A DNA stretch of 64,000 bases. It comes from a bacterium (GTDB taxonomy: Bacteria; Patescibacteriota; Microgenomatia; Levybacterales; UBA12049). Below the pieces are notes generated by a model. It was not told the origin of the DNA, did no database searches, and worked only from the letters and a program-made list of their open reading frames with translations. How positions within the stretch are numbered: position 1 is the stretch's first letter; the number at the start of each line of letters is the position of its first letter. The stretch lies in NCBI GenBank assembly GCA_021780675.1, contig JAJXYH010000013.1, forward strand, positions 593 to 64,592, in the 5' to 3' direction. The position numbers were made by a program, and so were the translations under genes. Of the stretch, positions 5,751-63,560 are shown in pieces.

Positions 5751-6545
5751 ATGATTGACGCCCACTGTCATCTTAATTTCCACGCATTTGAAAATGATTT
5801 GGATGAAGTAGTAAAACGAGCAAAGGAAAAGGGCGTTGAAAAAATTATTAATGTAGGAACAAGCCTTGAGTCAAGCCAAAAAGCGGTGGAGCTGGCAGAA
5901 AAATATGAAAATCTTTATGCAATTGTTGGTATTCACCCCCACCATGCGGACAAACTTGAAAAAGGCTGGGAAGATGAATTAGAAAAAATTGCTAAACACC
6001 AAAAAGTAATTGGTATTGGGGAAATCGGGCTTGACTATTATAGTTATAAATCAAACGGAATTGTTGATCCCAAACTGCAAAAAGAGGTTTTTGAAGCTCA
6101 AATTAACCTTGCACATAAATTAAGACTACCGCTGCAAATCCACAACCGTCATGCAGGAGACGACATTTTAGCCATACTTTATAGGCACAAAAATAGTCTT
6201 TTGGAAACTCCGGGAATGTTTCATTGTTTTGCAGGAAGCCGCGATGTTTTAATTGATGCTTTGAAGTTTGGTTTTTATATTGGATTTGATGGTAATTCTA
6301 CTTATAGTGGGCTTGCACCAGGTGAAACTGTTGAACTGCCCGAACTTATCAAGATGACGCCCCTTGATAGAATTGTTGTAGAAACCGATTCTCCATATCT
6401 TACCCCGATACCCCACCGCGGTAGCAGAAACGAACCTTCCTATGTTATAATTACAGCTGAATTCATAGGTAAAATTAAAAATACTCCTTTCGAAAAATTA
6501 GAAAAAATCACAACGGAAAATGTTCTAAAAATATTTAAAATATGA
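5751..6545 (+). CDS. tatD: TatD-family metal-dependent hydrolase/DNase.
   Basis: N-terminal DAHCHL metal-binding motif. Internal HxH and terminal D are conserved. Confidence 0.85.
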   Translation: MIDAHCHLNFHAFENDLDEVVKRAKEKGVEKIINVGTSLESSQKAVELAEKYENLYAIVGIHPHHADKLEKGWEDELEKIAKHQKVIGIGEIGLDYYSYKSNGIVDPKLQKEVFEAQINLAHKLRLPLQIHNRHAGDDILAILYRHKNSLLETPGMFHCFAGSRDVLIDALKFGFYIGFDGNSTYSGLAPGETVELPELIKMTPLDRIVVETDSPYLTPIPHRGSRNEPSYVIITAEFIGKIKNTPFEKLEKITTENVLKIFKI

Positions 6546-8035
6546 CACAAACTTTTAACAGAATTTTCATCCGATATCCGGTAAAAACCAAAAGGGCTTT
6601 GGAAATCTTACCGGGTTTTGTCTCATGGATGCTTATACTTTTTCCTCTATGGGGTTCTTTTTTTATACCATTGGTGGTTGCCTATTTCATCCTGTTTTTT
6701 GACGTATATTGGTTTTATAAAAGTTTTTCTCTTGTAATTACTGCCTATATTTCATCAAGAAAAATCCGACAGGCGGAAAAAGAAAATTGGCTGGAGGCTG
6801 CAAAACCACTAGAGAATTTTGAAAACACAAGCCATATTGTAATTATTCCTAATTATAAAGAAACATTAGAAAAACTAAGAAAAACTATTGAAAGCTTGGC
6901 TGACCAAAGTTTCCCGGCAAAAAGAATTTACGTTGTACTTGCCATGGAAAAAAGAGAAACCGAAGCAAAAGAAAGAGCAGAAAAACTAACCACAGAATTT
7001 AAAGATGTCTTCGGAGATATTTTTGCAACCTTTCATCCCGATATTCAAGGTGAAGTAAAAGGTAAATCATCTAACGAAAGCTATGCCGGAAAGGTTGCCT
7101 ATAAAAAATTGACTAAAGAGAAAAAAATTGACTATGACTTTACAACTATTTCCTCTGTTGATGCCGATTCTATCTTTGATAAACAGTATTTTTCGTATCT
7201 TACCTTTCTATTTTTAACCGATAAAAATAGGTATGAAAAGTTCTGGCAATCGGCCAATGTTAATTACAATAATTTTTGGAATGTTCCGGCTCCGATTAGA
7301 GTCATTTCATTTTTCGGAAGTCTATACAGAACCGCACTTTTGGTACAAAAAGACAGGCTCGTTTCTAATTCCACTTATTCGCTATCCCTTAAGCTTATGC
7401 ATGAAATCGGATTTTGGGATACAGACGTAATTCCAGAAGATTATAGAATATTCTTTAAGGCATTTTTTAAAAAACAGGGACAAGTATATATGGAGCCAAT
7501 ATTCTTAAAAACTTCCATGGATGCCCCACTTTCTTCAAGCTATGTAAAATCGCTTAATAATAAATACCAGCAGGAAAGAAGATGGAGCTGGGGGGCATCT
7601 GACGATGCTCTGTTTATAAAATGGTGGCTTACTATTCCTAATGTTCCCTTTTTTAGAAAAACACACTTAGTTTTTAATGTTCTGGTAGATCATTTTTTAT
7701 GGCCGGTAAATTGGTTTATAATTACAATAGCTGCAAATATTATGCCGTTTGTTAATCCGGTTTTTACAAGAACTACACTTGGTTACAATCTTCCCAGGAT
7801 GGCTGGATTTATCTTAACCCTCTGTCTATTAGCAACTTTTGGAATGATAATAATAGATTATAGACAACGAAGTTCGCATCAAAAGACTTCGAAAAAAAGA
7901 CAACTTTTATTTCCACTGGAATTTTTGCTTCTTCCTATTATCGGATTTTTCCTTTCTTCACTTCCCGCTCTAATTTCTCATACACAACTTATGCTTGGCA
8001 AAAGACTTGAGTATAAAGTTACAGAAAAACTTTAA
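6542..8035 (+). CDS. Polytopic membrane glycosyltransferase-like protein (GT2-like cytoplasmic domain flanked by TM helices).
   Basis: N-terminal TM pair, a roughly 250-aa soluble domain with a D..D-type acidic patch (SSVDADSIFD), then a C-terminal TM bundle. Start overlaps the tatD stop (ATGA). Confidence 0.45.
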   Translation: MTQTFNRIFIRYPVKTKRALEILPGFVSWMLILFPLWGSFFIPLVVAYFILFFDVYWFYKSFSLVITAYISSRKIRQAEKENWLEAAKPLENFENTSHIVIIPNYKETLEKLRKTIESLADQSFPAKRIYVVLAMEKRETEAKERAEKLTTEFKDVFGDIFATFHPDIQGEVKGKSSNESYAGKVAYKKLTKEKKIDYDFTTISSVDADSIFDKQYFSYLTFLFLTDKNRYEKFWQSANVNYNNFWNVPAPIRVISFFGSLYRTALLVQKDRLVSNSTYSLSLKLMHEIGFWDTDVIPEDYRIFFKAFFKKQGQVYMEPIFLKTSMDAPLSSSYVKSLNNKYQQERRWSWGASDDALFIKWWLTIPNVPFFRKTHLVFNVLVDHFLWPVNWFIITIAANIMPFVNPVFTRTTLGYNLPRMAGFILTLCLLATFGMIIIDYRQRSSHQKTSKKRQLLFPLEFLLLPIIGFFLSSLPALISHTQLMLGKRLEYKVTEKL

Positions 8036-9525
8036 TGATTAACTTATTAAAAAAATTAGAGAAAAACATTAATTTTTGGTTTTTAGTAGGAATATCTTTT
8101 TTATTTTTCTTGTTAAGATTTCCTTCTCTTTTTGAACCTAACTGGTATGGAGATGAAGGAATTTACCAAGTATTGGGATTAGGAATAAATGCGGGGAGAC
8201 TTTTATACAGAGATATTTTCGACAACAAACCACCGCTTCTATATATACTTTACAGCCTCGTAAATTCTAATTTATTTTGGATAAGATTTCTTTCCTTAGT
8301 TGCAGGACTTTTTGCTGTTTGGGGATTTTATTATTTATCTAAGAAAATTTTAAAAACAAAAAAGGCAAGCTTTGTTACAACCGGAATTTTTGCAATACTC
8401 TTCGGTCTTCCTTTAATTGAGGGCAACATCGCAAATGCGGAAAATTTTATGTTGCTTCCTAATATTATTGGTGCAATTCTTGTTTTAAAATCCATAGAGG
8501 TTGCAAGCCTTAATAAAAAATTGATACTGCTTTCTGCATCAGGCTTTATATTGGGTTTATCATTTTTATTAAAAATAGTTGCTGTTTTTGATTTTGCAGC
8601 GTTTTTTATGTTTTTATTTATTGCAGATTTTCCCGGTAAAATTTCGCAATTTTTTGAAAAGGAAAAATTTTTATTAGCCTTTAAAAAACTTTCCGTTTTT
8701 ACCGTTAGCTTTGCCCTTCCGATAATTCTTACTACTTTATTTTTTATTCTAAATAATTCCCTCTCCTATTTCTTAAAAGCAGTTCTTTTCAATAACGTAG
8801 GGTATGTAGGATATGGCAACCAATTTATAATTCCTCAGGGCTTACTGATTATTAAGCTTGCTTTATTGTTAATATCTATACTTTTCTTATTTATTAAAAG
8901 AAAATCATTTGATAAAACTTTTATCTTTGTAGGTATTTGGTTGGGTTTTTCGCTTTTTGATACGTTTTTTTCGCAGCGACCTTATACCCATTATGTATTA
9001 ACACTTTTACCCAGTTTTTGTCTTATGGTTGGTTTACTTTATCAAGATAATAAATCATCTAAACTTGCCGGAATTTTTGCTTTATCAACTCTTATAATAG
9101 TGCTTCTCAATTTTAAGTTTTATTCTAAAACCGGTTATTATTATCAAAATTTTATTTCATACATCACTGGTTTTGAAAAAACTTATGATTACAGGAAATT
9201 TTTTGATGGTAATACTCCGCGTGATTATGAGCTTGCGGACTATCTACTTCTTCAAGAAAAATCCGGATCAAAAACTTTTATCTGGGGTAATAATGCGGAA
9301 GTTTATACACTAATTAATTCTCTTCCTCCCGGAAGATATACTGTTGCTTATCATATTACCAACTATAAAGACGGTTATCAAAATACACTAGACGGATTAA
9401 AAAATAGTCCTCCTCAATTTATTGTAATAATGCCAAATGTTCCATCTTATCCATTCAGCCTTTACGGCTATAATCTAAAAATTAATTTAAGCGGTATAAA
9501 TATTTATGAAAAAATTAATCAATAA
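8035..9525 (+). CDS. GT-C fold membrane glycosyltransferase (ArnT/PMT/GT83-GT39-like).
   Basis: At least 10 TM helices. First extracytoplasmic loop carries WYGDEGIY, the DE motif of GT-C enzymes that use polyprenyl-phosphate sugar donors. C-terminal soluble domain. Confidence 0.55.
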   Translation: MINLLKKLEKNINFWFLVGISFLFFLLRFPSLFEPNWYGDEGIYQVLGLGINAGRLLYRDIFDNKPPLLYILYSLVNSNLFWIRFLSLVAGLFAVWGFYYLSKKILKTKKASFVTTGIFAILFGLPLIEGNIANAENFMLLPNIIGAILVLKSIEVASLNKKLILLSASGFILGLSFLLKIVAVFDFAAFFMFLFIADFPGKISQFFEKEKFLLAFKKLSVFTVSFALPIILTTLFFILNNSLSYFLKAVLFNNVGYVGYGNQFIIPQGLLIIKLALLLISILFLFIKRKSFDKTFIFVGIWLGFSLFDTFFSQRPYTHYVLTLLPSFCLMVGLLYQDNKSSKLAGIFALSTLIIVLLNFKFYSKTGYYYQNFISYITGFEKTYDYRKFFDGNTPRDYELADYLLLQEKSGSKTFIWGNNAEVYTLINSLPPGRYTVAYHITNYKDGYQNTLDGLKNSPPQFIVIMPNVPSYPFSLYGYNLKINLSGINIYEKINQ

Positions 9526-9859
9526 TATTAAATCTGACAAAATTACATTAAGAGGATTTTTACTTAGTTTAATTTTAGGCTTGTTAACAAGTGTGTACGT
9601 ATTGTTTTATTACGGATCACTTCCTCCATTTATTCCTATTTTTAATCAACTTCCCTGGGGGGAACAAAGATTTACCTCTACTATTGGAATTTTTATTCCT
9701 ATCATTATATTTTCTTTATTATTTCTATTTAACCTAATTGTTACCGGAGTTATTTATAACAAAAATCCCCTAATTGCAAGGATAATTGCCGCAACAACTC
9801 TTCTTATAGCTATCATGAATTCTATTTTTATTATAAGAACAATTTTAGTAATAATTTAA
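9506..9859 (+). CDS. Small 3-TM membrane protein, unknown function.
   Basis: 117 aa, three hydrophobic helices. Translationally coupled within the glycan operon. Confidence 0.35.
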   Translation: MKKLINNIKSDKITLRGFLLSLILGLLTSVYVLFYYGSLPPFIPIFNQLPWGEQRFTSTIGIFIPIIIFSLLFLFNLIVTGVIYNKNPLIARIIAATTLLIAIMNSIFIIRTILVII

Positions 9860-12773: not shown

Positions 12774-14411
<1,638 letters not shown>

Positions 14412-31812: not shown

Positions 31813-32320
31813 TATACAATTTTAATCTATTTTCTTTATCTATTAGTTGTGGCTTTTGATCTTCAATATCATATATAAAACTTACAATTTTTGTTCCTTT
31901 TTTTAATTCTTTTTTAAATTTAGGAAGCAATTTTTTTAATGCTACAGGAACCAAATATACTATTACAACCGTTGCTTCAGATATATTCTCCTTAAAAAAG
32001 TTATCTTTTTTAATAATAACCTTACGTTCTAAATTATTTTTCTTAATCCTTAAGATTGCAATCCAGACCCTTATTGGATCAATCTCTATTCCAACACCTT
32101 TTGCCCCAAGCTTCCCTGTCTGAATAAGAACCTCCCCATCCCCACAACCTAAATCGTAAACTACGTCTTTGGAGGAAATTTTTGCCAGTTTACAGATTGC
32201 CTTAGCAGTTTTAGTATTCGTTCTCCACCATGGTGCCCAAGGACTATCCGGCGGCCAAATCATTGATAAAAAAATCAATAACACAAAAACTATAAAAATG
32301 ATAATTACATTTACTAACAT
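31805..32320 (-). CDS. Membrane-anchored class I SAM-dependent methyltransferase.
   Basis: N-terminal TM helix. Motif I VYDLGCGDG and motif post-I GIEID. Confidence 0.6.
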   Translation of the reverse strand: MLVNVIIIFIVFVLLIFLSMIWPPDSPWAPWWRTNTKTAKAICKLAKISSKDVVYDLGCGDGEVLIQTGKLGAKGVGIEIDPIRVWIAILRIKKNNLERKVIIKKDNFFKENISEATVVIVYLVPVALKKLLPKFKKELKKGTKIVSFIYDIEDQKPQLIDKENRLKLYII

Positions 32321-32604
32321 TAAATAATTTTAAATACTTTACCTAAAATATTTTTACGATCTATGAAGCCAATTTTTCTACTATCTAAACTGTCATTTAT
32401 ATTATCACCAATTACAAAATATTGATTATCTTTAATTTGGGAGATTCGCTTTACCATTTTCTTATTATTGAACTTAAAAGCAACTATATCATTAACTTTG
32501 GGTTCTTTAAATATGTAAAATAAATTACTAACCAGTACGATGTTATTATTTTTAAGTGCAGGTTCCATGCTGTGTCCAATTATTCTTAATTTACCAAGAA
32601 GCAT
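32320..32604 (-). CDS. sodX: S26/S24-type serine peptidase, the NiSOD maturation protease SodX.
   Basis: Catalytic Ser box GHSMEP and downstream KRI(S) Lys dyad. 94 aa. Start lies directly at the stop of sodN. Confidence 0.6.
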   Translation of the reverse strand: MLLGKLRIIGHSMEPALKNNNIVLVSNLFYIFKEPKVNDIVAFKFNNKKMVKRISQIKDNQYFVIGDNINDSLDSRKIGFIDRKNILGKVFKII

Positions 32605-33086
32605 TATTTGTAGATTACTACTTCACCTTCTGTGGGGTAAACAGATTTAATTCTGACCGGAGTAACCTTTTTTGTCTTATAAAAAATTTCCGCTATTTCC
32701 AAAACTCCATAAAGTGCCATGAGTGCCGAATCCATATCTATGTTCTGTCTTGCTTTTGCCGAAGCTCTTAGAGTTTTCACAAATAACTCGTTTAGGTTTT
32801 TGAATTCATTAAAATGTTCATCCTTAAAATAGTCATTTCTAAGTGTTTCCAGTTCTTCTTCTAATAAATCCGAGTGTTTTTCTTTAACATGAGTAATTCT
32901 TGCAATTGTGTGATCTGAAGTTAAATTATCATCTTGTTTTATATCTTGTAACATCTTGGTCATTCTTACTACTGTGTGTGCAGCAAGTTGTGCCTGATGT
33001 GGATCATAAATTCCGCAAGGAATATCACAATGCGCAAAAGCAATGTCTTCTTTTATAAATTTTGTAACAAATTTAATAATGTTCAT
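32604..33086 (-). CDS. sodN: Nickel-containing superoxide dismutase precursor.
   Basis: 18-aa propeptide followed by the Ni-hook HCDIPCGIYDP (His-Cys-x-x-Pro-Cys-Gly-x-Tyr). Four-helix-bundle-length protein, 160 aa. Confidence 0.8.
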   Translation of the reverse strand: MNIIKFVTKFIKEDIAFAHCDIPCGIYDPHQAQLAAHTVVRMTKMLQDIKQDDNLTSDHTIARITHVKEKHSDLLEEELETLRNDYFKDEHFNEFKNLNELFVKTLRASAKARQNIDMDSALMALYGVLEIAEIFYKTKKVTPVRIKSVYPTEGEVVIYK

Positions 33087-54114: not shown

Positions 54115-54834
54115 TTGTATAATTCCCGCACAATGATGGCAATTGAAACTAATCAAATTTTTCCGGAACAAGAATTAAGGCCAGAACCTAAATTTGATGC
54201 AATCCTTGTTCATGGATATTGGATGAGTGAACCAGTCTCTGGCGATGTAAGATCTGCATTAAGAACCCGTTTGGCTACCAGATCCGCTGCACTGGCTTAC
54301 GACCGAGGAGATGGCGCAAGAAATATTGTTCTACCGTTAGGAAAATTGTGGGGGCAAGACTATGAATCATTAGGAAACTTAATGGCCGATGAACTTGAAT
54401 TTAAATATGGAGTTCCACCAGGCACAATAATAAGAGAAGGGAATGCATTTAGTACGGGTGGTGAAATAAAAACCTTTTTAGAAATTGCGCAAAAAAACGG
54501 CTGGACAAAACTTCTGGATATTGCTTTTTCTGCACATTTTTTAACAATCCCCCATGTATTTGATGCCTACTCTAAAGATGATGGAAAAATAACTGTTCAG
54601 TTTAGGTCTGTTGAGGAGATAATCGAATCTGAAGATTATGAATTAGTATCAGGGCTTGTCAAAAGACTTGGAAAATCTAGATATGGAATTGCCCATAAGG
54701 TTTATGAAAGAGGAAAACAAATAGTCACTAAAATTCATGGGACAGACTACGATTCCTTGGAAGAACGTAATAAAATGGCGCGAACAAAAAAAGGTAAGGA
54801 ATTTCCAATATCATTTGATGTTTACAAAATTTAG
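54115..54834 (+). CDS. DUF218 (YdcF/ElyC/SanA-like) domain protein. Higher GC than its neighbours.
   Basis: FDAILVHG...RL...AALAY.....IVLPLG...... then GVPPGTIIREGNAFSTGGEIKTFLEIAQ...LLDIAFSAHF matches the DUF218 pattern. Probable start at the internal Met-Met. Confidence 0.45.
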   Translation: MYNSRTMMAIETNQIFPEQELRPEPKFDAILVHGYWMSEPVSGDVRSALRTRLATRSAALAYDRGDGARNIVLPLGKLWGQDYESLGNLMADELEFKYGVPPGTIIREGNAFSTGGEIKTFLEIAQKNGWTKLLDIAFSAHFLTIPHVFDAYSKDDGKITVQFRSVEEIIESEDYELVSGLVKRLGKSRYGIAHKVYERGKQIVTKIHGTDYDSLEERNKMARTKKGKEFPISFDVYKI

Positions 54835-55166
54835 TAAAAAAGTTTGAGCCATTTTTGCCAGTTTGGGGTATTTTTCACAGCCGATTTCGAATCTGAATTA
54901 ATCATGTTTGAGGATATAATCACATCTTCTTCTCCGGGTTTTACCAAAAATAACTTATTTCTGGCAGTTTCGTCTACAAAACTCTGGGTTTTAACATAGG
55001 AAAGTTCGGCTTTTAACTTAGTATTATTATTTTTTTGCATCTGTAATTCATTTTTGGCAGAAGACAAAAGGTCTTGTTTTTGCCAAAGATCAATAATTGA
55101 CTGCAAAAGCCCGTTTATGACCAATAAAAGTACTATAACTGTTAGAATATATCCTATTTTTTTCAT
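54831..55166 (-). CDS. FtsB/DivIC-like septum-formation-initiator family protein.
   Basis: 111 aa. N-terminal TM helix, coiled-coil (ELQMQKNNNTKLKAELSYV) and the FLVKPGEE tail characteristic of FtsB/DivIC. Confidence 0.5.
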   Translation of the reverse strand: MKKIGYILTVIVLLLVINGLLQSIIDLWQKQDLLSSAKNELQMQKNNNTKLKAELSYVKTQSFVDETARNKLFLVKPGEEDVIISSNMINSDSKSAVKNTPNWQKWLKLFY

Positions 55167-55289: not shown

Positions 55290-56150
55290 ATGAAACAAGT
55301 TACCCTAAAAAATGCTCATGAAGAGTTTAAAAACTTTTTAGAGCAAAACAAGAAATCTGCATCAACTGTCGTTGCTTATGGCAAGGATATTGACCAGCTT
55401 ATTGGTTTTTTGGAAGAGGTTAAAAAGAATAATGTTCATGAAGTTTCTACAGAAGACATTCAAGCCTTCTTGGCTAAGCTTGGAAACGAAGGTTATACTC
55501 CAAAATCAGTCTCAAGAAAAATAAACTCAACCAGAACTTTTTATAGGTTTCTAAAGGTCAATGAGTATGTAACCGACGACCCTTCACTTTTAGTTTCCCA
55601 TCCCAAATATCAACTTGCCCCACCCAGAATTTTAACTCCCACAGAATATAGAGCATTAAGGGATGCTGCCAGAAACGATGCAAGAATGTTTGCAGTTATT
55701 GAGCTTTTGCTCCAAACCGGAATTAGGATCGGGGAACTGGCAAACCTTAGACTCTCCGACATAGTAAAAGATTCACTTCATATTGCCCCATTTGAAAAAC
55801 ACGAAGAAAGAAATGTCCCATTAAACAAAAGCGCACAAGCCGCATTAAATAAATATCTAGAAGCAAGACCCAAAGTTACCGATGATCATGTTTTTGTAAC
55901 AAAGAGCGGGAAACCATTTTTAATAAGAAATATTAGAACCGCGGTTGAAAGATATTTTAGGTTAGCAGAAATTAAAGGTGCAAAAGTAAATGATTTAAGA
56001 CATACATTTGTTGCTCATCATTTAAAACACGGAGTGTCCTTAGTTATGCTTTCTAAAGTTTTGGGGCATAAAAGAATTTCTACAACCGAAAGGTATCTTC
56101 AATACGTCCCAGATAGAGGCAAAGAAACCTCAACGCTAACCGAACTATAA
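55290..56150 (+). CDS. Tyrosine site-specific recombinase of the XerC/XerD family.
   Basis: N-terminal SAM-like core-binding domain (STVVAYGKDIDQLIGFL). Catalytic R...HxxR...Y (RHTFVAHHL ... RISTTERY) with Tyr at the C-terminus. Confidence 0.8.
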   Translation: MKQVTLKNAHEEFKNFLEQNKKSASTVVAYGKDIDQLIGFLEEVKKNNVHEVSTEDIQAFLAKLGNEGYTPKSVSRKINSTRTFYRFLKVNEYVTDDPSLLVSHPKYQLAPPRILTPTEYRALRDAARNDARMFAVIELLLQTGIRIGELANLRLSDIVKDSLHIAPFEKHEERNVPLNKSAQAALNKYLEARPKVTDDHVFVTKSGKPFLIRNIRTAVERYFRLAEIKGAKVNDLRHTFVAHHLKHGVSLVMLSKVLGHKRISTTERYLQYVPDRGKETSTLTEL

Positions 56151-56238
56151 ATTTTTAATTAGAAAGAATTCTTCAAAAATATATCTTCCCAGATGGTTTA
56201 TATTTATTGTATTAAATGAAGAAAAGAAAGGTAAATAG

Positions 56239-56310
56239 TGCCCCCGCTTGGATTCGAACCAAGGACATCTACTTTATAAGAGTAGCGCTCTACCGCTGAG
56301 CTACAGGGGC
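56239..56310 (-). tRNA. tRNA-Ile with a UAU anticodon.
   Basis: Reverse complement folds as GCCCCTG-TA-GCTC-AGCGGTA-GAGC-G-CTACT-CTTATAA-AGTAG-ATGTC-CTTGG-TTCGAAT-CCAAG-CGGGGGC-A. All stems perfect, one G-U wobble. Anticodon loop C-U-UAU-A-A. Confidence 0.8.
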
Positions 56311-56354: not shown

Positions 56355-58727
56355 TTAAAGTCTTGCTCTTTGGGCAATTTGGGTTTCTAAATTAACGACG
56401 TCTTTACCGTATTTAAGTCTTGAAAGCTCACGAATAAGCTCTGCAACCCTTTGGTTTTCCATCGCTTTTTCTTTTGCCATATCCTTAGTAGTATCCATCG
56501 AAAACGGAGTTACCGGTTCGTTTTTTACAATTGTTTTAACAAAAGCATTAAAAACATCAACATTAATTAAATCCGCTTCGGTAAAAATAGGTTGGAATTC
56601 ATGCTGCAAATAACTTGCATCTGTTACACCCACCCTAAAAGACATTATTGTTCCAACGTTTCCAAAAATTGCGTTTTTAACCTCTTCATCCATTTGTCCA
56701 ATAAACTGGTTTGCAACAATTAAATTCAATCGATATTTTCTTGCCTCCGATAAAATTTGCGCAAAATCCGGTGTAGCGAAATTTTGGAACTCGTCAACAT
56801 AAAGATAGAAATCTTTTCTTTGCTCTTGTGGAACATCTTGTCTACTCATGGCGGCAACTAAAATTTTAGGTACCATAACAAGTCCTAAAAAGTTAGAATT
56901 TTCTTCTCCGATTTTTCCTTTAGAAAGATTTACCAAAAGAATTTTTTGCTCATCCATTACCTTTCTAAAATCAAAGGCTGATTGTGATTGACCGATAATA
57001 TTTCTCATCATTTTATTAGTAACAAACCTACCAAATTTGGAAACTATATAATCCAAGGTTTCCGACTTATGAAAATCGCTGGTTTGGGCGATCTGATCAG
57101 TCCAGTAACGCCTAACAATGGGGTCTGAAACTTTAGGCAATAACTCTTGTACAAACGAGGCATCGGTTAAAGCTCTTACCACCTCTATAAAAGTACTACC
57201 TTGCTCATACATAACCGTAAGCATTGCATTTCTAATTGCATGCTCAAACCTTGGACCAATAATACCGGTTTTATTAGGATCGTAAAGTTTATACATGAGC
57301 CCTACAATTGATGAAACAATATAATGTTTTTCCTGTTCGGTTTGTGCTTCTAGCATATTAAGTCCCATTGGTCTTTGTGAATCTGATGGATCAAATAAAA
57401 TAACATCTTCCGCTCTTTTAGCAGGAATCATTTTAAGTATGTCTTCTATTAAATCTCCGTGCGGGTCAATTACTCCGATTCCTTTTCCCTCCTGAATATC
57501 CTGGATTATCATTTGCTTAAGAAGTTCAGATTTACCAACGCCGGTTTTTCCAATAATGTACATGTGCCTTCTCCTATCGTCATCCTGAATATAAACTGGC
57601 TTACCAATTCCTCTAAATGTACTCATTCCCAAATAAAGTCCGCTTGATGGAATTTGCGATGGAGCCGGAGCCCTTTTTGCATTAATCCATTCAATATGTG
57701 GAGTTGTTACGCTTTTATTTGGAAAATGGAATATTCCTGCCAACTCCTCGCTATTTAAAACAGATAAATTTCCATTTGAAGGAAAATACCTATAAACAAA
57801 ATCTGAAATAAATCCTCCCTTTAGCCAATGTTTATTTTTACTTAAGGAGTTGCTTCCGTCAAACTGGCTAAAAGAAGTTAAAATATTTTCAAGATGGGCT
57901 GTTGCCGCTTCGCTTGATGAAGAAGAGACTACAATTCTAATGACTGCATAAAACCCAGGTTTTGAAATTTTATTCTCAATCGCTTCCAACTCTTTAGGAT
58001 CCGATGAATACTTTGCAGTTTCCGGGTTTGACTCATTTTTCTTGGTTGTTGCAATAAAACTTCGCCCAGCCTTACTCCATTTACTATCTGCTCCTGATAT
58101 TAAAATTTGAATTGCCGCACCTTCACCTTGACTCATTTTTGCAAGAACAGAAGTAATTGAAGCAAGCGGGTCAACTGCAAAGTCCTTATATAATTTTAAG
58201 GATTTAAAATTAGAATCCTTTAGCTTAAGCGATGCAAAAGCAACTTTACCTTCCTTGCTAAAAATATTATATTCGTTGCCAATGATATACCCTTCTTTTG
58301 ATCCCTTTTCCTCAACAACTCTAATTTCTGCATCCGGGTACGAAGCATTAATTTGTTTTTCAACTAAATCTTTATATTTGTTAGGTGTATAGATATAAAA
58401 TCTTATATCTTCGGGCATTCCAACAATTTCAAATGAGATATGCGGAGGATTTTTTAAAAAAGAGAACATTCCGTGAGCTTTAATTCCGGCAAAACTTGCA
58501 AACATTTGTTCGGCTGCATCTATTTTTATTTCATTATCCCTTGGAAGAGAGATTTGAAGAAGTGTAGAATCTAAAGACTGCTTTTCCCTATCCCTGTTTT
58601 TATACCAAATCATCAAAACGTAAGTAACAGCAAAAATTCCAACAATAATAATCGCCAACAAAACAAGGACTACGAAAACTGCAATTATCACATTAAACAT
58701 GTTTGATAAAGAAAAGGCTTGAATCAT
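56355..58727 (-). CDS. Membrane-anchored P-loop ATPase of the VirD4/TraD/TraG (type IV coupling protein) or HerA-FtsK superfamily. 790 aa.
   Basis: N-terminal TM helix. Roughly 380-aa domain of unknown function. Then Walker A IIGKTGVGKSE, a VIDPHGDL block and a Walker-B-like LYVDEFQNF. Confidence 0.55.
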   Translation of the reverse strand: MIQAFSLSNMFNVIIAVFVVLVLLAIIIVGIFAVTYVLMIWYKNRDREKQSLDSTLLQISLPRDNEIKIDAAEQMFASFAGIKAHGMFSFLKNPPHISFEIVGMPEDIRFYIYTPNKYKDLVEKQINASYPDAEIRVVEEKGSKEGYIIGNEYNIFSKEGKVAFASLKLKDSNFKSLKLYKDFAVDPLASITSVLAKMSQGEGAAIQILISGADSKWSKAGRSFIATTKKNESNPETAKYSSDPKELEAIENKISKPGFYAVIRIVVSSSSSEAATAHLENILTSFSQFDGSNSLSKNKHWLKGGFISDFVYRYFPSNGNLSVLNSEELAGIFHFPNKSVTTPHIEWINAKRAPAPSQIPSSGLYLGMSTFRGIGKPVYIQDDDRRRHMYIIGKTGVGKSELLKQMIIQDIQEGKGIGVIDPHGDLIEDILKMIPAKRAEDVILFDPSDSQRPMGLNMLEAQTEQEKHYIVSSIVGLMYKLYDPNKTGIIGPRFEHAIRNAMLTVMYEQGSTFIEVVRALTDASFVQELLPKVSDPIVRRYWTDQIAQTSDFHKSETLDYIVSKFGRFVTNKMMRNIIGQSQSAFDFRKVMDEQKILLVNLSKGKIGEENSNFLGLVMVPKILVAAMSRQDVPQEQRKDFYLYVDEFQNFATPDFAQILSEARKYRLNLIVANQFIGQMDEEVKNAIFGNVGTIMSFRVGVTDASYLQHEFQPIFTEADLINVDVFNAFVKTIVKNEPVTPFSMDTTKDMAKEKAMENQRVAELIRELSRLKYGKDVVNLETQIAQRARL

Positions 58728-58730
58728 AAA

Positions 58731-59258
58731 TTATGCCTTCCTGCCGAATAATTTTTTATGCATCTCTTTAATAATTTTATTAAGAAGTGTTGCTAAAAAC
58801 GGTTTAGAGTCCTCTGTATATTCTCCCGCAAATTCACCAACATTTTCATGTAGGTTAAATTTTGTTTGTTTAGTTTTTAATGTTTCATTTATTTCATCTT
58901 CGCTCATCGGTAAAACAATTGTACTAGATGGCGAACTTGGAACCGGCGCGTTTTCTTGTGAATGTTTAACCCCAATTTGTTCATGGATCTCATCAAGGTT
59001 TGGCTTGTCCGAGTTTGCAGCAACACCAACATCTTTTAATTCTTGTTCAACTTTAACTTCTTCCTCCGAAGGTTTTATTACCTCCGATAAAGGGACTCCA
59101 CCAACTCTTTCCTTGTTTGCTGAAGGTGTTGGAGAAAATTGTCCTTGTCCTGTAAGAATTTTATCATCCGGTTTTGCTTGCTGCACCTGAGGAGCAGATG
59201 AACTCTGTAAGTTTTGATCTGATGGTTGCGCTTTTTGATTTTGAGCAGTGTTATCCAT
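58731..59258 (-). CDS. Hypothetical Gln/Pro/Ser-rich protein.
   Basis: Low-complexity N-terminal half, conserved-looking C-terminal roughly 60 aa. Sits 3 nt upstream of the ATPase gene. Confidence 0.35.
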   Translation of the reverse strand: MDNTAQNQKAQPSDQNLQSSSAPQVQQAKPDDKILTGQGQFSPTPSANKERVGGVPLSEVIKPSEEEVKVEQELKDVGVAANSDKPNLDEIHEQIGVKHSQENAPVPSSPSSTIVLPMSEDEINETLKTKQTKFNLHENVGEFAGEYTEDSKPFLATLLNKIIKEMHKKLFGRKA

Positions 59259-59311
59259 ACAATTATAATAACATTATTGAGAATAAACGACAATTAAACC
59301 GGTAGGTTAAA

Positions 59312-60466
59312 TTAACATCTGACGTTTTTTCCACAATCCGGATTTTGACAATTTTCTATTAATTGGTTTTCCGGTCGTAAATTTTTCCAACCACAATGCG
59401 GACAATCAAAAGTTCTGTCTCCAAATCTATCTTTTAATTTCCCAAACTCCGAAACACTAAACGGGGCTTTACCTGGCTCCATAAAACTTCCCAAACTAAA
59501 TCCTTCCGAAGTTCCGGGACATGGGCCTTGAGCCTTACGGACATTTTTTGTTCCCATAGCCCAGGAAATATCTTCGGCATAATTTGGGTCAAATGCATAT
59601 CTGTAATACAAGCTGTCCAAAAATTTAGAATCTCCGTTTTTAATTGCATCCAGAACCATATCTGATTGGTTTAGAATTGCATTGTATTTAAGTCTGTGGA
59701 TAAAATGATCGTTTGGTAAACCAACTAAAGAATTTATATAGCTTGTAATAAGAGGTGCGTTTATTTTATTGATTTTATCCATCTCGTCTTTTTCCAAAGC
59801 CTTTATACCGCCGTTTAGATATTTTTGGAGTTCTCCTGAATTATCGAATCCTGTTACTTTTATCGGGTCTTTTAGAAAATCCTCAGCTTTTGGCAAATTT
59901 TCGAAAACTTTAAAAGGTGCTACTCTTTGTCTATATTCATCTGCTGTAAGGTTTGATAAGAAACGTCTGTGTTCTACATATCTTCCTTTTTCATCCTCCT
60001 GAACCGAAAATGTATCAAAAAAATTGTTTGTATAATCCGACCCTGCAATACCCGGAAGCGACACCACCAAGAAAGTAGTTCCGGGAGGGATGTCTTCGTT
60101 AACCAGTTCAGGCTGCATTAGCTTAACTCCGGCAAGTTCTGCATCTTCCCTTTCAAAATCAATAGGATTCCCGTGCTCTCTTCTAAAATTAATTCCATTT
60201 ATCATCATGTCCTCAAGCGATTGTCCCATTGAGGCGGAAAAAATTTTACCCTCAACAATGTCATAACGCGTAACAGATTCTGCAACCTGCACCCTTTCAC
60301 CCATATACGTCTCAAGTTGTCTTTGAGTATATTCTTTTAACCTTTGTTGCTCTTTAAGAGATAGTTCGGAAAAATTTTCATAATCCCTCTCATCAAACGA
60401 AGGATTATATGCAAGTTTTGCCTCTTCCTGTCTATTTGGTATGTAATTTAGTCCTTCTCTTTCCAT
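59312..60466 (-). CDS. Hypothetical 384-aa cytoplasmic protein with a C-terminal Cys4 zinc ribbon.
   Basis: C-terminal CPHCGW...CQNPDCGK. No other recognisable domain. SD GAGGAG 7 nt upstream of the ATG. Confidence 0.4.
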   Translation of the reverse strand: MEREGLNYIPNRQEEAKLAYNPSFDERDYENFSELSLKEQQRLKEYTQRQLETYMGERVQVAESVTRYDIVEGKIFSASMGQSLEDMMINGINFRREHGNPIDFEREDAELAGVKLMQPELVNEDIPPGTTFLVVSLPGIAGSDYTNNFFDTFSVQEDEKGRYVEHRRFLSNLTADEYRQRVAPFKVFENLPKAEDFLKDPIKVTGFDNSGELQKYLNGGIKALEKDEMDKINKINAPLITSYINSLVGLPNDHFIHRLKYNAILNQSDMVLDAIKNGDSKFLDSLYYRYAFDPNYAEDISWAMGTKNVRKAQGPCPGTSEGFSLGSFMEPGKAPFSVSEFGKLKDRFGDRTFDCPHCGWKNLRPENQLIENCQNPDCGKNVRC

Positions 60467-60495
60467 AAAAAAACTCCTCTTTTCTTTTCGAGGAG
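60467..60495 (-). terminator. Intrinsic terminator of the nrdR-nrdJ-pduO operon. Its 3' arm doubles as the SD of the downstream gene.
   Basis: Minus-strand RNA: CUCCUC-GAAAAGAAAA-GAGGAG-UUUUUUU-AUG. Confidence 0.45.
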
Positions 60496-60593
60496 TCTTA
60501 TAAAAAGCACTTTTTGCTCGAAAAGATTTTAAGGGGATCTGGCTTTACAGTTGCGGCACAGCGTCGGAATTACACCGACTTTCACCCTAAGAA

Positions 60594-61139
60594 TCATCTG
60601 GATAACCAAATAATTTCTTTTTTGTTTTGTTTCTTATTTATAAATCTAGCATACATAAAAAGCAAGTCCGAAAGCCTATTCATGTAAATTAAAATTTCAT
60701 TGCCAACCTTTTCTTTTTCGGAAAGTTCAACAACCCTTCTCTCCGCACGGCGTACTAATGTTCGCGCAAAATGTAAACTTGCCCCTACTTCCGAACCTCC
60801 CGGAAAAATAAAATTTCTTAAAACCGGCAATTTTTTTGTTAATCCGTCTATTTCTTTTTCAAATAATTTAACTTGTTCTATCAGATGTTTTTCCAACGCC
60901 TGATTATTTAATTTGCTTGGGTTTGCTAAATAAGCGCCGATTTGAAATAAATCGTTTTGAATAACTTCTAAATTTTTTTTAATATTTTTGTTTTTATTCT
61001 TGGAAAGTATGACACCAAGATAACTATTTAGCTCATCAAGCGATCCATAGGTATTAACACGAAGCGAAGCCTTAGAAACTACCTTTCCTGCAAAAAGAGA
61101 AGTCTTGCCTTTATCACCAAATTTAGTATAAATGGACAT
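60594..61139 (-). CDS. PduO-type ATP:cob(I)alamin adenosyltransferase.
   Basis: N-terminal IYTKFGDKGKTSL matches the PduO/MMAB signature IYTKTGDKGTTSL. 181 aa. Confidence 0.8.
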   Translation of the reverse strand: MSIYTKFGDKGKTSLFAGKVVSKASLRVNTYGSLDELNSYLGVILSKNKNKNIKKNLEVIQNDLFQIGAYLANPSKLNNQALEKHLIEQVKLFEKEIDGLTKKLPVLRNFIFPGGSEVGASLHFARTLVRRAERRVVELSEKEKVGNEILIYMNRLSDLLFMYARFINKKQNKKEIIWLSR

Positions 61140-61148
61140 AAAATTTAC

Positions 61149-63560
61149 TTAACACTCGGAATATCCACAGGAGTAGCATTTCTTACATCCTTCTTCATAT
61201 GCAAGGCTTGCTGCACCACAATCAGGGCAGATATCATAAAGTCCTGTTGCAGTTCCTTCTGTTGTGGACAAACTTCCGGAATGAGATTGCAGCGTTAATT
61301 GCTCAAGTTTTACAATTTCCTCCTTTGGCTGAGCGTCTGCGGCTATTGGAGCGTGTGTTAAGGCAATATTAACATTGGTTGTTCCATTTGAATTTACAAT
61401 TCTGGGTTTATCTTCGACAACACCGTTTACTTTAAATTCGAAGTGTTTTGATAGAACCTTAGCAACTGCGTCGGGAAGAGATAATACTTTGTTTGCACCA
61501 AATCCTACAGACCTCGCACCACCAATACCAATTAGCTGCGCGACAATTTGCCTAATTCTTTCCCTTGGCGCCAAGCTTCCGTTAAGCCTTAAATTAAGAG
61601 AAATCATTCTACCCAAAGCGTCTGCCATTGCTGTGACATCCGAACCCGATTTACCAATTGTTATAAACACTTCAAAAGGCTCCTTATATTCGTTATGATT
61701 GATCGTTATGAATGTTTTACCAACCGGCGTTTCCGACTGATATGTGACGCCTTCAACCATCATTGGTCTTGGCATTACCGGAAGAGTTGTTTGCATTTGG
61801 AGTTTTTCTACTTCTTCTTTTTTATCGTCTGTCCTTGATAAAACTCCCTCTCTTGATCCGTCTCTCATGTAAGTTATTCCCTTAAGACCCATATCATGTG
61901 CCATTTCATATAGTTTCTTAACATCTTCTACTGTATGTCCCTTAGGCGCATTCACTGTTTTAGAAATAGACGAATCAATATATTCTTGGGCAACAGACTG
62001 TACTTTTACGTGTTCCTCGGGCGTTAGGTCGTTTGCGGAAACAAAGTATTCTGGTCTCTGTTTGCTTGGATTTTCGCTTCTCCACTGCTCAAAAAGCGGG
62101 TGATACATCTTATGTTCTCCCAGTCTATCCCTTCGTATAAATTCAAATTCATAAACCGGTTCTATTCCCGATGAAGCACCGGCCAAAAGCCCTGTTGAAC
62201 CGGTTGGCGCAATTGTTAAAAGTACCGCATTTCTTATTCCCTGTTTGGCAATCTTTTTTCTAATTTCCTCCGGAAGTCTTTTAATAAACCAGCCGTTTAG
62301 GTATTTTTCTTTATTAAATTTAGGGAAAGAACCTTTCTCGGCTGCAATATCGGATGAAGATATATAGGCATTATCTCTTAATGTTTTAAATATTTTTTCA
62401 ATTATTTTTAAGGATTCCTCAGAGCCATATTTTACTTCCATCTTTATTAATGCGTCTGCCAAACCCATGATTCCCAAACCTTGTCTTCTAATGTCTTTAG
62501 CTACTTTTTCATTTTCTTTTATAAAATAATGGGTATCATCAATTACATCATCTAAAAACCTGACTGCCGTTTGAACATCTTTACCCAAATTTACATAATC
62601 AAATTTTTTGTTCTTTACGTAAGCGGACAGGTTCATTGCTCCTAAATTACAAACCGCATAACCGGATAACGGCTGTTCTCCGCATGGATTTGTAGCGATT
62701 AACCTTTCAAAATACCAGGTATTAGAGCGTTTATTGCTTCTATCTAAGAAGTGAAGTCCTGGCTCTGCACTACGCCAAGCTGCCGTACAAATTAAATCCC
62801 AAAGTTGTTTTGCTTTAACGGTTTTTTTAACTTCTACCTTACCACCCAACTTCTTCCATTCTTCGATATCTCCTGTCCATTTTTTATCATATTTTTTATC
62901 CGCAAGGTCAGGATAAACCAAATCCCAATTTCCGTCCTTTTTAACAGCCTCCATAAAAGCATCGGATACGCAAACCGAAAGGTTTGCACCATTTAATTTA
63001 GTTAAATCTTGCTTGGTCGTTATAAATTCCTCTACGTCAGGATGCCAATCATGAAGCATAAGCATTAAAGCCCCCCTTCTTGACCCACCCTGCTGGACAA
63101 TATCAATTGTTGAGGTTGAATAAAGCTGTGCCCAATTAAGCGGACCGGATGAAAACCCGTTGACTTTTTTAACCCTTGATCCTCTTGGTCTTAAGGAAGA
63201 CAAATTAACCCCAACTCCGCCGCCATGAGCCATAATTTCAATCATTTGGGTTAAATTTTGCATTATTCCGCCTCTTGAATCCGGAGGATTAGGGATTACG
63301 AAACAATTATAGTAAGTTACATCAAATCCTGTTCCTGCACCTGCTAAAATTCTTCCTCCAGGTAAGAATTTAAAATCAGACATTACTTCAAAGAATTTTT
63401 TTTCCCATTTTTTGCGGTCTTTTGGTTTTTCTACATTGGCAATACCCTTAGCAACTCTTTTCCACATTTCCTCCGGGGTTTTTTCTAGTGGATTACCTTT
63501 GGCATCTTTTAACGAATACCTATCTAAAAATACTTTTTGTCTTACTCCATCTAATTTCAT
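61149..63560 (-). CDS. nrdJ: Class II (adenosylcobalamin-dependent) ribonucleotide reductase with a C-terminal zinc ribbon.
   Basis: Length, conserved catalytic Cys region (NPCGEQPL) and the ten-stranded-barrel finger loop. C-terminal CPDCG...CKKCYSCG. Confidence 0.85.
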   Translation of the reverse strand: MKLDGVRQKVFLDRYSLKDAKGNPLEKTPEEMWKRVAKGIANVEKPKDRKKWEKKFFEVMSDFKFLPGGRILAGAGTGFDVTYYNCFVIPNPPDSRGGIMQNLTQMIEIMAHGGGVGVNLSSLRPRGSRVKKVNGFSSGPLNWAQLYSTSTIDIVQQGGSRRGALMLMLHDWHPDVEEFITTKQDLTKLNGANLSVCVSDAFMEAVKKDGNWDLVYPDLADKKYDKKWTGDIEEWKKLGGKVEVKKTVKAKQLWDLICTAAWRSAEPGLHFLDRSNKRSNTWYFERLIATNPCGEQPLSGYAVCNLGAMNLSAYVKNKKFDYVNLGKDVQTAVRFLDDVIDDTHYFIKENEKVAKDIRRQGLGIMGLADALIKMEVKYGSEESLKIIEKIFKTLRDNAYISSSDIAAEKGSFPKFNKEKYLNGWFIKRLPEEIRKKIAKQGIRNAVLLTIAPTGSTGLLAGASSGIEPVYEFEFIRRDRLGEHKMYHPLFEQWRSENPSKQRPEYFVSANDLTPEEHVKVQSVAQEYIDSSISKTVNAPKGHTVEDVKKLYEMAHDMGLKGITYMRDGSREGVLSRTDDKKEEVEKLQMQTTLPVMPRPMMVEGVTYQSETPVGKTFITINHNEYKEPFEVFITIGKSGSDVTAMADALGRMISLNLRLNGSLAPRERIRQIVAQLIGIGGARSVGFGANKVLSLPDAVAKVLSKHFEFKVNGVVEDKPRIVNSNGTTNVNIALTHAPIAADAQPKEEIVKLEQLTLQSHSGSLSTTEGTATGLYDICPDCGAASLAYEEGCKKCYSCGYSEC

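Follow-up and report, generated by a model that had tools for sequence, protein, structure and literature searches.

A gene of an uncharacterised family behind a cobalamin riboswitch adjoins a gene pair with its own promoter and a coupling-protein-type ATPase in Levybacteria

We examined a block of three genes, here called g1, g2 and g3, in a stretch of 64,000 nucleotides (the window) of contig JAJXYH010000013.1, a metagenomic contig from Levybacteria (Microgenomates; Patescibacteria, or candidate phyla radiation (CPR)). The three open reading frames (ORFs) are co-directional, with spacers of 53 nt between g1 and g2 and 3 nt between g2 and g3, exactly as an initial annotation made from the letters had placed them. 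That annotation regarded them as a single operon behind a terminator hairpin and, from the adjoining tRNA gene and recombinase, suggested either a conjugative or DNA-uptake remnant or a lineage-specific translocation system. We find instead that g1 belongs to a unit with nrdJ and pduO that is gated by a cobalamin riboswitch missed at that stage, while g2 and g3 have a promoter of their own and are also found without the B12 genes. We therefore read the block as the meeting point of a riboswitch-gated g1 unit and a separately transcribed g2-g3 pair, and hold this with reasonable, though not high, confidence. For comparison we used relatives of g3, which a degenerate-pattern scan found in at least 547 species genomes; 80 loci were retained, and the gene order of the relatives was mapped by tblastn and ORF calling.

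Two probable transcription units meet between g1 and g2

The gene order in the relatives reads nrdJ, (riboswitch), (DUF4430 plus DUF6580), pduO, (riboswitch), a g1-like gene (350-560 aa), a g2-like gene (130-215 aa), g3, tRNA-Ile, xer on the opposite strand and divIC, and synteny of the block holds over at least 80 species genomes, in Levybacteria and beyond. Of the 60 loci with at least 4.5 kb of sequence upstream of g3, 43 carry both g1 and pduO and none carries g1 in the absence of pduO; a same-strand riboswitch lies upstream of g1 in all 43, directly abutting it in 27. Since g1 is found only with pduO and always downstream of the riboswitch, we assign it to the B12 unit; in many loci g1 even overlaps the pduO stop codon. 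A family profile built for g1 recovers 55 of the 61 ORFs in the slot between pduO and g2.

The promoter ahead of g2 is conserved in design, consisting of a TTGnnn -35-like element, 17 nt and an extended -10 of the form TGnTAnnAT. In the window these are TTGTCG (59293-59288) and TGTTATTAT (59273-59265), the latter ending 6 nt ahead of the g2 ATG at 59258 with no Shine-Dalgarno (SD) sequence there. In 69/76 loci the distance from the end of the TGnTAnnAT motif to the g2 ATG is 5-10 nt, in most cases 6 or 8; shuffles average 0.4 such loci and reach at most 3. The motif is found before neither pduO (0/64 loci) nor g1 (0/31 loci). The same design recurs in Gottesmanbacteria and in the relatives L090 and L091, and an SD-like motif precedes g2 in just two of the 76 loci. 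A -10 element this close to the start codon together with the missing SD implies a leaderless mRNA, and the g2-g3 transcript does look leaderless on these grounds. The SD of g3 (AGGAAGG) lies inside the last codons of g2, which implies translational coupling. On this reading the extended -10 promoter would drive a leaderless g2-g3 mRNA that begins at the g2 ATG, with translation of g3 coupled to that of g2.

The g2-g3 pair is kept in all five Levybacteria loci that lack nrdJ, pduO and the riboswitch, and Curtissbacteria, L089 and L091 likewise have the pair but not the B12 island. Because of this persistence and of the conserved promoter, we treat g2-g3 as a separate unit, and the single three-gene operon is not supported. 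A conserved three-gene cassette, which the initial annotation had proposed to look for, exists in part: the g2-g3 pair is lineage-wide, but g1 is restricted to loci with pduO and the riboswitch.

Downstream, tRNA-Ile directly follows g3 in 42/44 loci, distant lineages included. The window copy is intact and has its own extended -10 promoter-like site (56350-56323). The UAU anticodon of this tRNA is unusual, as AUA codons are decoded in most bacteria by a CAU tRNA that carries lysidine. The recombinase has its best NCBIfam matches to XerD and XerC at about 166 bits, under the equivalog cut-offs; it is 70-92% identical among loci, and its position is kept across them, L091 and L092 included. A search for att-like direct repeats flanking the block gave none that were significant, and the GC content of the block, 0.34-0.37, is like that of the rest of the window. 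As judged from gene order, the locus is an ancient Microgenomates synteny block (nrdR, nrdJ, adenosyltransferase, a variable slot, g2, g3 and tRNA-Ile, with xer opposite and then divIC), in which tRNA-Ile and Xer appear as deeply syntenic housekeeping neighbours. The coordinates of all features are collected in Table 1.

Table 1. Features at and around the g1-g2-g3 block (positions of the window)
Feature	Position	Strand	Basis or remark
divIC	54831-55166	minus	beyond xer
Xer-type tyrosine recombinase	55290-56150	plus	convergent with g3
tRNA-Ile(UAU)	56238-56310	minus	ARAGORN; Rfam 73.7 bits
g3	56355-58727	minus	790 aa ORF
g2	58731-59258	minus	175 aa ORF
g2-g3 promoter	59259-59293	minus	promoter scan and sequence
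g1	59312-60466	minus	384 aa ORF
Riboswitch expression platform	60467-60525	minus	sequence, minimum-free-energy fold, comparison of loci
AdoCbl-II cobalamin riboswitch aptamer	60517-60603	minus	Rfam RF01689 and own covariance model
pduO-type ATP:cob(I)alamin adenosyltransferase	60594-61139	minus	TIGR00636 PduO_Nterm 200 bits; Pfam Cob_adeno_trans
nrdJ, class II B12-dependent ribonucleotide reductase	61149-63560	minus	Pfam Ribonuc_red_lgN/lgC, TSCPD
nrdR	source contig, just past the window edge, upstream of nrdJ		Pfam NrdR

Elsewhere in the window, three consecutive plus-strand ORFs (497, 496 and 117 aa; 6542-9859) with no Pfam match on record lie upstream of a Glycos_transf_4 / UbiA pair, and a nickel superoxide dismutase gene (Sod_Ni) with an adjacent S24/S26-type maturation peptidase occupies 32320-33086 on the minus strand, a notable find in a reduced CPR genome. 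The relative L092 has a group I catalytic intron (13781-13975, minus strand; 81.9 bits in Rfam) a few kilobases downstream of its g3/xer/divIC block.

The cobalamin riboswitch and the g1 family

The Rfam model RF01689 for the adenosylcobalamin (AdoCbl) riboswitch class AdoCbl-II matches positions 60524-60599 of the minus strand with 40.5 bits, against a gathering score of 36.5, and on its own it also finds copies in relatives (53.7 and 39.4 bits). Our own covariance model, built from 27 relatives, scores the window copy at 85.4 bits and, across 80 related genome loci, detects 80 copies, only one of them off the g3 strand. Over these 80 copies 97.7% of cells are paired and compensatory changes occur in 8/11 pairs; their covariation scores 0.608, where shuffles score 0.13 and slid controls no more than 0.11. 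The aptamer contains the conserved AdoCbl-II core GCUGUGCCGCAACUGUAA, and its 5′ end overlaps the pduO stop codon.

The hairpin seen by the initial annotation at the 5′ boundary of g1 is real, but it is not a plain terminator, being part of the expression platform of this riboswitch. A terminator and SD-sequestering stem is formed by ACTCCTC (60496-60490) and GAGGAGT (60479-60473), with seven T at 60473-60467 and then the g1 ATG at 60466, such that the 3′ arm of the terminator is the SD sequence of g1. The competing anti-terminator pairs a 5′ arm, CTTTTCGAG (60525-60517), with CTCGAAAAG (60492-60484); the latter overlaps the 5′ arm of the terminator. The minimum-free-energy fold of the platform forms the terminator. 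The same design, CTTCCGAG...ACTCCTCGGAAG...GAGGAGTTTTTTT-ATG, is present in more than 30 loci with the consensus CTTCCGAG and CTCGGAAG, of which the window copy is a compensatory variant (CC to TTT, GG to AAA).

Taken as it is laid out, the platform would be an OFF switch acting on both transcription and translation, a direction of switching that we infer from the arrangement of its arms. Transcription from nrdJ-pduO would run into the riboswitch lying on the pduO stop codon. With AdoCbl bound, an extended P1 helix would hold CTTTTCGAG, the ACTCCTC/GAGGAGT stem with its seven T would form, and this would both end transcription and bury the g1 SD; without AdoCbl, CTTTTCGAG would pair with CTCGAAAAG and g1 would be made. 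The element resembles other AdoCbl-II riboswitches in its score over gathering, its core, its covarying helices and its terminator/SD OFF platform. It differs from the usual case in lying inside an operon, on the pduO stop codon, where it would gate the distal gene or genes only, and in that the gated gene belongs to an uncharacterised family. A literature search on cobalamin riboswitches in Patescibacteria and on AdoCbl-II returned nothing relevant.

Two subtypes of the riboswitch coexist in one gene cluster of relatives (L005-L084; for example L077:3006-3092 and L077:4739-4825). The subtype AGGTAAT...AAAAC stands after nrdJ and before DUF4430/DUF6580/pduO, and some of its copies fall under the Rfam gathering score yet score well with the local model; the subtype GGGTGAA...CCCC stands after pduO and before g1. 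Scans of the Gottesmanbacteria locus found no riboswitch, and those of L090 gave sub-threshold matches only. In both of these lineages the slot before g2 holds another unknown family of 560-630 aa (L087:4637-6526 in Gottesmanbacteria; 4866-6551 in L090), the two slot proteins being similar to each other at the N-terminus; the L090 ORF is preceded by a weak riboswitch-like match of 18.5 bits.

Riboswitch-controlled genes in the relatives include those for DUF4430, DUF6580 and, in one locus, an alpha/alpha-toroid protein. Transcobalamin-type B12 binders have DUF4430 as their C-terminal domain (PMC4350170); a literature search on DUF6580 returned nothing relevant. Because these genes, pduO and nrdJ all lie there, we regard the region upstream of g1 as a B12 salvage island. 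Two further peculiarities of the island concern its enzymes. In L092 (4980-5591) a CobA/CobO/BtuR-type adenosyltransferase takes the place of the non-homologous PduO type between the ribonucleotide reductase (RNR) genes and g3, a non-orthologous replacement in situ, and the nrdJ upstream of the Gottesmanbacteria g3 homolog (L087:1-3687) carries two inteins with LAGLIDADG endonuclease domains.

The g1 protein had been described as lacking any recognisable domain except a C-terminal Cys4 zinc ribbon, and this description stands: searches of Pfam, NCBIfam, PHROG and PADLOC gave no family match, and the ribbon is formed by Cys 355, 358, 373 and 378. It is preceded by a Gly-rich disordered loop with an invariant Cys316. 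The family, for which only 35 word-indexed homologs were found, is marked by LETxLGER, DFEREDAE, GS.Y.HNF[FY]D, RY.S.L, NAILN..D, the loop Cys, PFSVSEF and the Cys4 ribbon. There is no transmembrane (TM) segment, which places the protein in the cytoplasm. The AlphaFold2 (AF2) model of g1 (predicted local distance difference test (pLDDT) score 83.5) has no significant Foldseek neighbour in the PDB (best E 0.058), and a profile search of PDB sequences matches the ribbon only; as modelled, g1 has a new fold with a conserved charged pocket. Identity among loci is 23-45% for g1 where it is 68-87% for g3. By these comparisons g1 is a new, fast-evolving, Levybacteria-specific family of predicted cytoplasmic proteins and a putative member of the B12 regulon. 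The C-terminus of NrdJ (61149-61230, minus strand) likewise carries a Cys-rich tail, CPDCG...CKKCYSCGYSEC, whose layout is like that of the g1 loop Cys and Cys4 ribbon, a likeness that may or may not be meaningful.

From its regulation and its company, g1 may be a B12-starvation-induced accessory of cobalamin salvage or adenosylation, processing or reducing the cofactor or passing it on to PduO or NrdJ. Less likely, g1 would provide a bypass that supplies deoxynucleotides independently of B12. Two points weigh against assigning g1 to cobalamin handling, in that the proposed role has no sequence or structural relative behind it and the zinc ribbon resembles nucleic-acid-binding ribbons.

The g2-g3 pair and the coupling-protein ATPases

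The small g2 protein is of low complexity, as previously described, and largely disordered; 'Pro/Ser-rich' applied in part, the composition being dominated by K, E, S, Q and P. Searches of the Pfam, NCBIfam and PHROG libraries gave no family match. Nevertheless, in practically all loci with upstream sequence, including those of Gottesmanbacteria, Curtissbacteria and L089-L092, a g2 homolog of 129-273 aa abuts g3, and in all lineages it shares short motifs (MDD..KE..P..SE.EP..E..GVE..P.L..H..G[IV].H..LPMT..EA..DS..WLA.L..K) that end in an amphipathic C-terminal 'DS..WLA.L..K' helix. g2 would thus be an obligate small disordered partner of g3, and by analogy with CagZ, the partner of Cag-beta, or with the small adaptors of DotL, we infer that it may serve as an adaptor or regulator of the ATPase.

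For g3, the membrane-anchored VirD4/TraD-like ATPase of the initial annotation is borne out. The N-terminal TM helix and the quoted motifs are present: a single hydrophobic helix (about aa 7-44) is followed by KNRDREK and predicted to span the membrane once, at about aa 10-42, with the N-terminus out, and the ATPase motifs GKTGVGKS (393), DPHGD (421) and VDEFQN (644) include an intact Walker A (393-400) and Walker B (642-647). Pfam TrwB_AAD_bind matches with 38.6 bits against a gathering score of 20.5, DUF87 and TraG-D_C are also over threshold, and the best NCBIfam matches are TraD/VirD4-like. Among PDB sequences, a profile search picks out TrwB and DotL, and hhalign, run against R388 proteins, aligns g3 with TrwB at 95% probability (E 4e-8) over 255 columns spanning the nucleotide-binding and all-alpha domains. 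In Foldseek the ATPase half reaches target-normalised TM-scores of 0.52-0.62 against TrwB, Cag-beta and DotL, and about 0.54 against HerA.

The region of about 380 aa ahead of the P-loop, which was thought to match nothing, is in fact covered by Pfam PF26449 (DUF8128), an assignment taken from precomputed annotation of the exact protein and all listed homologs. Together with the AF2 model (pLDDT 82.9), in which one long TM helix precedes an N-domain of alpha/beta type, a RecA-like core that holds a helical insertion, and a helical tail, this gives the following domain plan. A DUF8128 domain (about aa 50-345), predicted to be cytoplasmic, is followed by an ATPase of the type IV coupling protein (T4CP) type (about aa 360-745) including an all-alpha insertion, modelled as all-helical at about residues 464-592 with core strands either side, and then by a conserved helical C-tail. 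g3 would therefore sit on one TM helix with both DUF8128 and a TrwB-like ATPase in the cytoplasm, and by homology it probably forms a hexamer. A literature search on DUF8128 returned nothing relevant.

VirB4 (TrwK), HerA and FtsK belong to the same ATPase superfamily as g3. The best full-length Foldseek alignments are in fact to TrwK (VirB4), with E about 1e-16 over about 860 columns but a TM-score of only about 0.3, so that DUF8128 is at most possibly VirB4-like. The sequence similarity to TrwK is confined to the P-loop (hhalign probability 3.6%), and the Pfam search gave no match to the CagE/TrbE (VirB4) N-domain.

Compared with the T4CPs TrwB of R388, VirD4, TraD, DotL and Cag-beta, g3 shares the nucleotide-binding domain with its all-alpha insertion, the membrane anchor and a small adjacent partner (CagZ in the case of Cag-beta). 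It differs from them in having one TM helix rather than two with a small extracytoplasmic loop, in its additional cytoplasmic DUF8128 domain of about 300 aa, in the missing linkage to relaxase, virB4 or mobile elements at the inspected loci, and in being a highly conserved chromosomal core gene on a predicted leaderless mRNA shared with a disordered partner. The family is large, with 23,240 clusters at 50% identity and more than 7,800 homologs, the top matches of g3 being 75-89% identical. g3 is thus best described, on sequence grounds, as a core gene of the lineage and as an orphan Patescibacteria T4CP homologue of DUF8128 type. We take it to be one of the orphan T4CPs of Quinonero-Coronel et al. 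(2025, PMC12102498), which are likewise widespread and not near virB4; its precomputed DUF8128 assignment speaks for this. The part of that study used here gives counts and the idea of exaptation; the g2 partner, the leaderless promoter, the synteny with tRNA-Ile, Xer and DivIC and the B12/RNR adjacency go beyond it.

Several members and relatives of the family deserve separate mention. Giant g3 paralogs (P0175-P0213) of 1,400-2,000 aa carry long N- or C-terminal extensions, some with tetratricopeptide repeats (TPR) and one with a second P-loop; a 'Rosetta stone' search for the role of g3 among them yielded TPR repeats or the second P-loop only. Homologs in Bacillus phages span both DUF8128 and the ATPase (Goe26, L093:2954-5822; phage G gp156) at 19-23% identity, and phrog_5156 matches with E 5e-86. 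The ATPase gene of Goe26 is overlapped at its start by a small ORF, reminiscent of g2-g3, and the neighbourhoods of the phage homologs (Goe26 and D6E) were uninformative, with hypothetical proteins only. Residues 376-686 of g3 also give a partial PADLOC match to mad8 (E 7e-18) of the candidate MADS system, the other components of which are not nearby. A defence-system role for g3 was considered and rejected, as partial mad8 and HerA P-loop matches were all there was and partner genes were missing.

Alternative readings and significance

The initial annotation had found no VirB4/VirB6-type partner in the window, and this is confirmed; neither VirB4, VirB6 nor a relaxase was found in its 64 kb, and type IV secretion system (T4SS) genes are absent within about 10 kb in every inspected locus (about 90 related loci with 7-10 kb flanks). 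Because of this absence, and because homologs occur in Bacillus phages that to our knowledge have no T4SS, we consider g3 independent of a T4SS. g2-g3 is then probably a stand-alone housekeeping motor exapted from the coupling-protein lineage, likely acting on DNA, rather than a subunit of a conjugative apparatus.

Several observations weigh against this reading and against a strict separation of the two units. The stand-alone action of g3 is deduced from absent linkage, and the genome may encode a VirB4 system elsewhere; its hexamer, its topology and its binding to g2 rest on homology and AF2 models. No intrinsic terminator was found between g1 and g2, so that read-through permitted by the riboswitch could cross the 53-nt spacer and add to g2-g3 expression. 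The B12/RNR island also adjoins g2-g3 in Gottesmanbacteria, L090 and L092, which could mean a functional link, and L092 keeps this adjacency despite its non-homologous CobA-type adenosyltransferase. Finally, the non-essential T4CP homologue of S. epibionticum, which is discussed next, may be other than DUF8128 type.

Among the alternatives, the one to be taken most seriously, although we think it unlikely, is that g3 is a genuine T4CP that recruits substrates in trans to a VirB4-based Patescibacterial T4SS located elsewhere, near oriC, with g2 as adaptor or substrate and a role in host interaction. The T4CP character of the ATPase in sequence and fold would fit this, as would the small adjacent partner, of the kind that T4CP adaptors typically present (the fold search with g3 also hit 8dol, a structure of Cag-beta with CagZ). 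T4CP genes can also be distant from virB4, and in Saccharibacteria T4SSs are both widespread and essential, according to the portions of PMC12102498 and PMC12857230 used here. The same portion of PMC12102498, however, counts 5,713 VirD4-like T4CPs across 2,918 genomes of Patescibacteria, just 148 of these T4CPs being near virB4, and reports that a T4CP homologue is non-essential in S. epibionticum, where the T4SS is essential, raising exaptation as a possibility. The anchor of g3, one TM helix plus DUF8128, is not the canonical two-TM one. In addition, the conservation of g3 far exceeds that of T4SS parts, for which scarcity or divergence is reported in Microgenomatia, and the phage homologs speak against such a partnership as well.

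It is quite improbable, in our judgement, that the whole block is one B12-responsive system in which AdoCbl scarcity, leaving NrdJ unable to make dNTPs, would lead to read-through of g1-g2-g3, whereupon the g2-g3 motor and g1 together would import or process cobalamin, DNA or deoxynucleotides from a host. The missing terminator between g1 and g2 would allow it. The order of RNR, adenosyltransferase, slot and g2-g3 is moreover kept in Levybacteria, Gottesmanbacteria, L090 and L092, even where the adenosyltransferase is non-orthologous, and the literature calls the route of nucleotide acquisition in CPR bacteria unknown. This is outweighed by the strongly conserved promoter of g2-g3, by the loci that keep the pair without any B12 gene or riboswitch (the five in Levybacteria, Curtissbacteria, L089 and L091), by a g1-g2 spacer that is often about 200 nt in other loci, by the candidate B12 binder or transporter genes (DUF4430, DUF6580) that relatives have for the purpose, and by the Gottesmanbacteria locus, in which the riboswitch was not found.

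Still less probable is that g3 is the FtsK equivalent of the lineage, a septal DNA pump working with Xer and DivIC in chromosome segregation. It is true that T4CPs and FtsK are of one ATPase superfamily, that HerA translocases are among the fold matches of g3, that the order of g3, opposite-strand xer and divIC is kept in Levybacteria, L091 and L092 with RNR upstream as a theme of DNA metabolism, and that g3 is conserved at the level of a core gene. Yet g3 scores 19.8 bits against the 24 required for FtsK_SpoIIIE (PF01580), over the P-loop only, it has no gamma domain and one TM helix where FtsK has about four, and no FtsK structure is among its top 50 fold matches. The convergent xer is not co-transcribed with it. 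FtsK itself is reportedly present in the Saccharibacterium TM7x, which also counts against a substitute. Identity with FtsK/SpoIIIE was what the initial annotation had named as refuting its view of g3, together with g1 and g2 being ubiquitous core genes; the former is not seen, although g2 and g3 do turn out to be ubiquitous core genes of the lineage.

That the T4CP-like ATPase beside a tRNA gene and a tyrosine recombinase marks a conjugative or integrative element, or a DNA-uptake island, inserted at tRNA-Ile has next to nothing left in its favour, because an intact tRNA and an Xer-type recombinase are syntenic with the block across species, att repeats are missing and composition is normal. 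With this, an attractive reading of the locus as the remnant of a mobile element is corrected.

To return to the two-unit reading, the riboswitch class and the orphan T4CP homologues were known before; the g1 family, the unusual position of the riboswitch inside an operon and the definition of g2-g3 as a module are new. Patescibacteria make up a large share of bacterial diversity, and their cofactor and nucleotide supply is poorly understood. The locus offers a clean case of an intra-operon cobalamin riboswitch, one that points to the uncharacterised g1 family as part of the B12 economy of Levybacteria. The orphan coupling ATPases number in the thousands, and what they do is a recognised puzzle; for them g2-g3 provides a defined two-gene module. 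Should g3 prove to work alone as a motor for DNA or protein, it would exemplify conjugation machinery exapted into core cell biology. A bolder extension, which we rate as a long shot, would make g2-g3 a Patescibacteria-specific housekeeping DNA motor, descended from coupling proteins but outside any T4SS, whose placement behind the B12-dependent RNR is functional. A shortage of AdoCbl would stall NrdJ, read-through would raise g1 and top up g2-g3, and the cell would then import or process DNA or deoxynucleotides of its host, or handle its chromosome with Xer. If true, nucleotide acquisition would be tied to cofactor status in organisms able to make neither.

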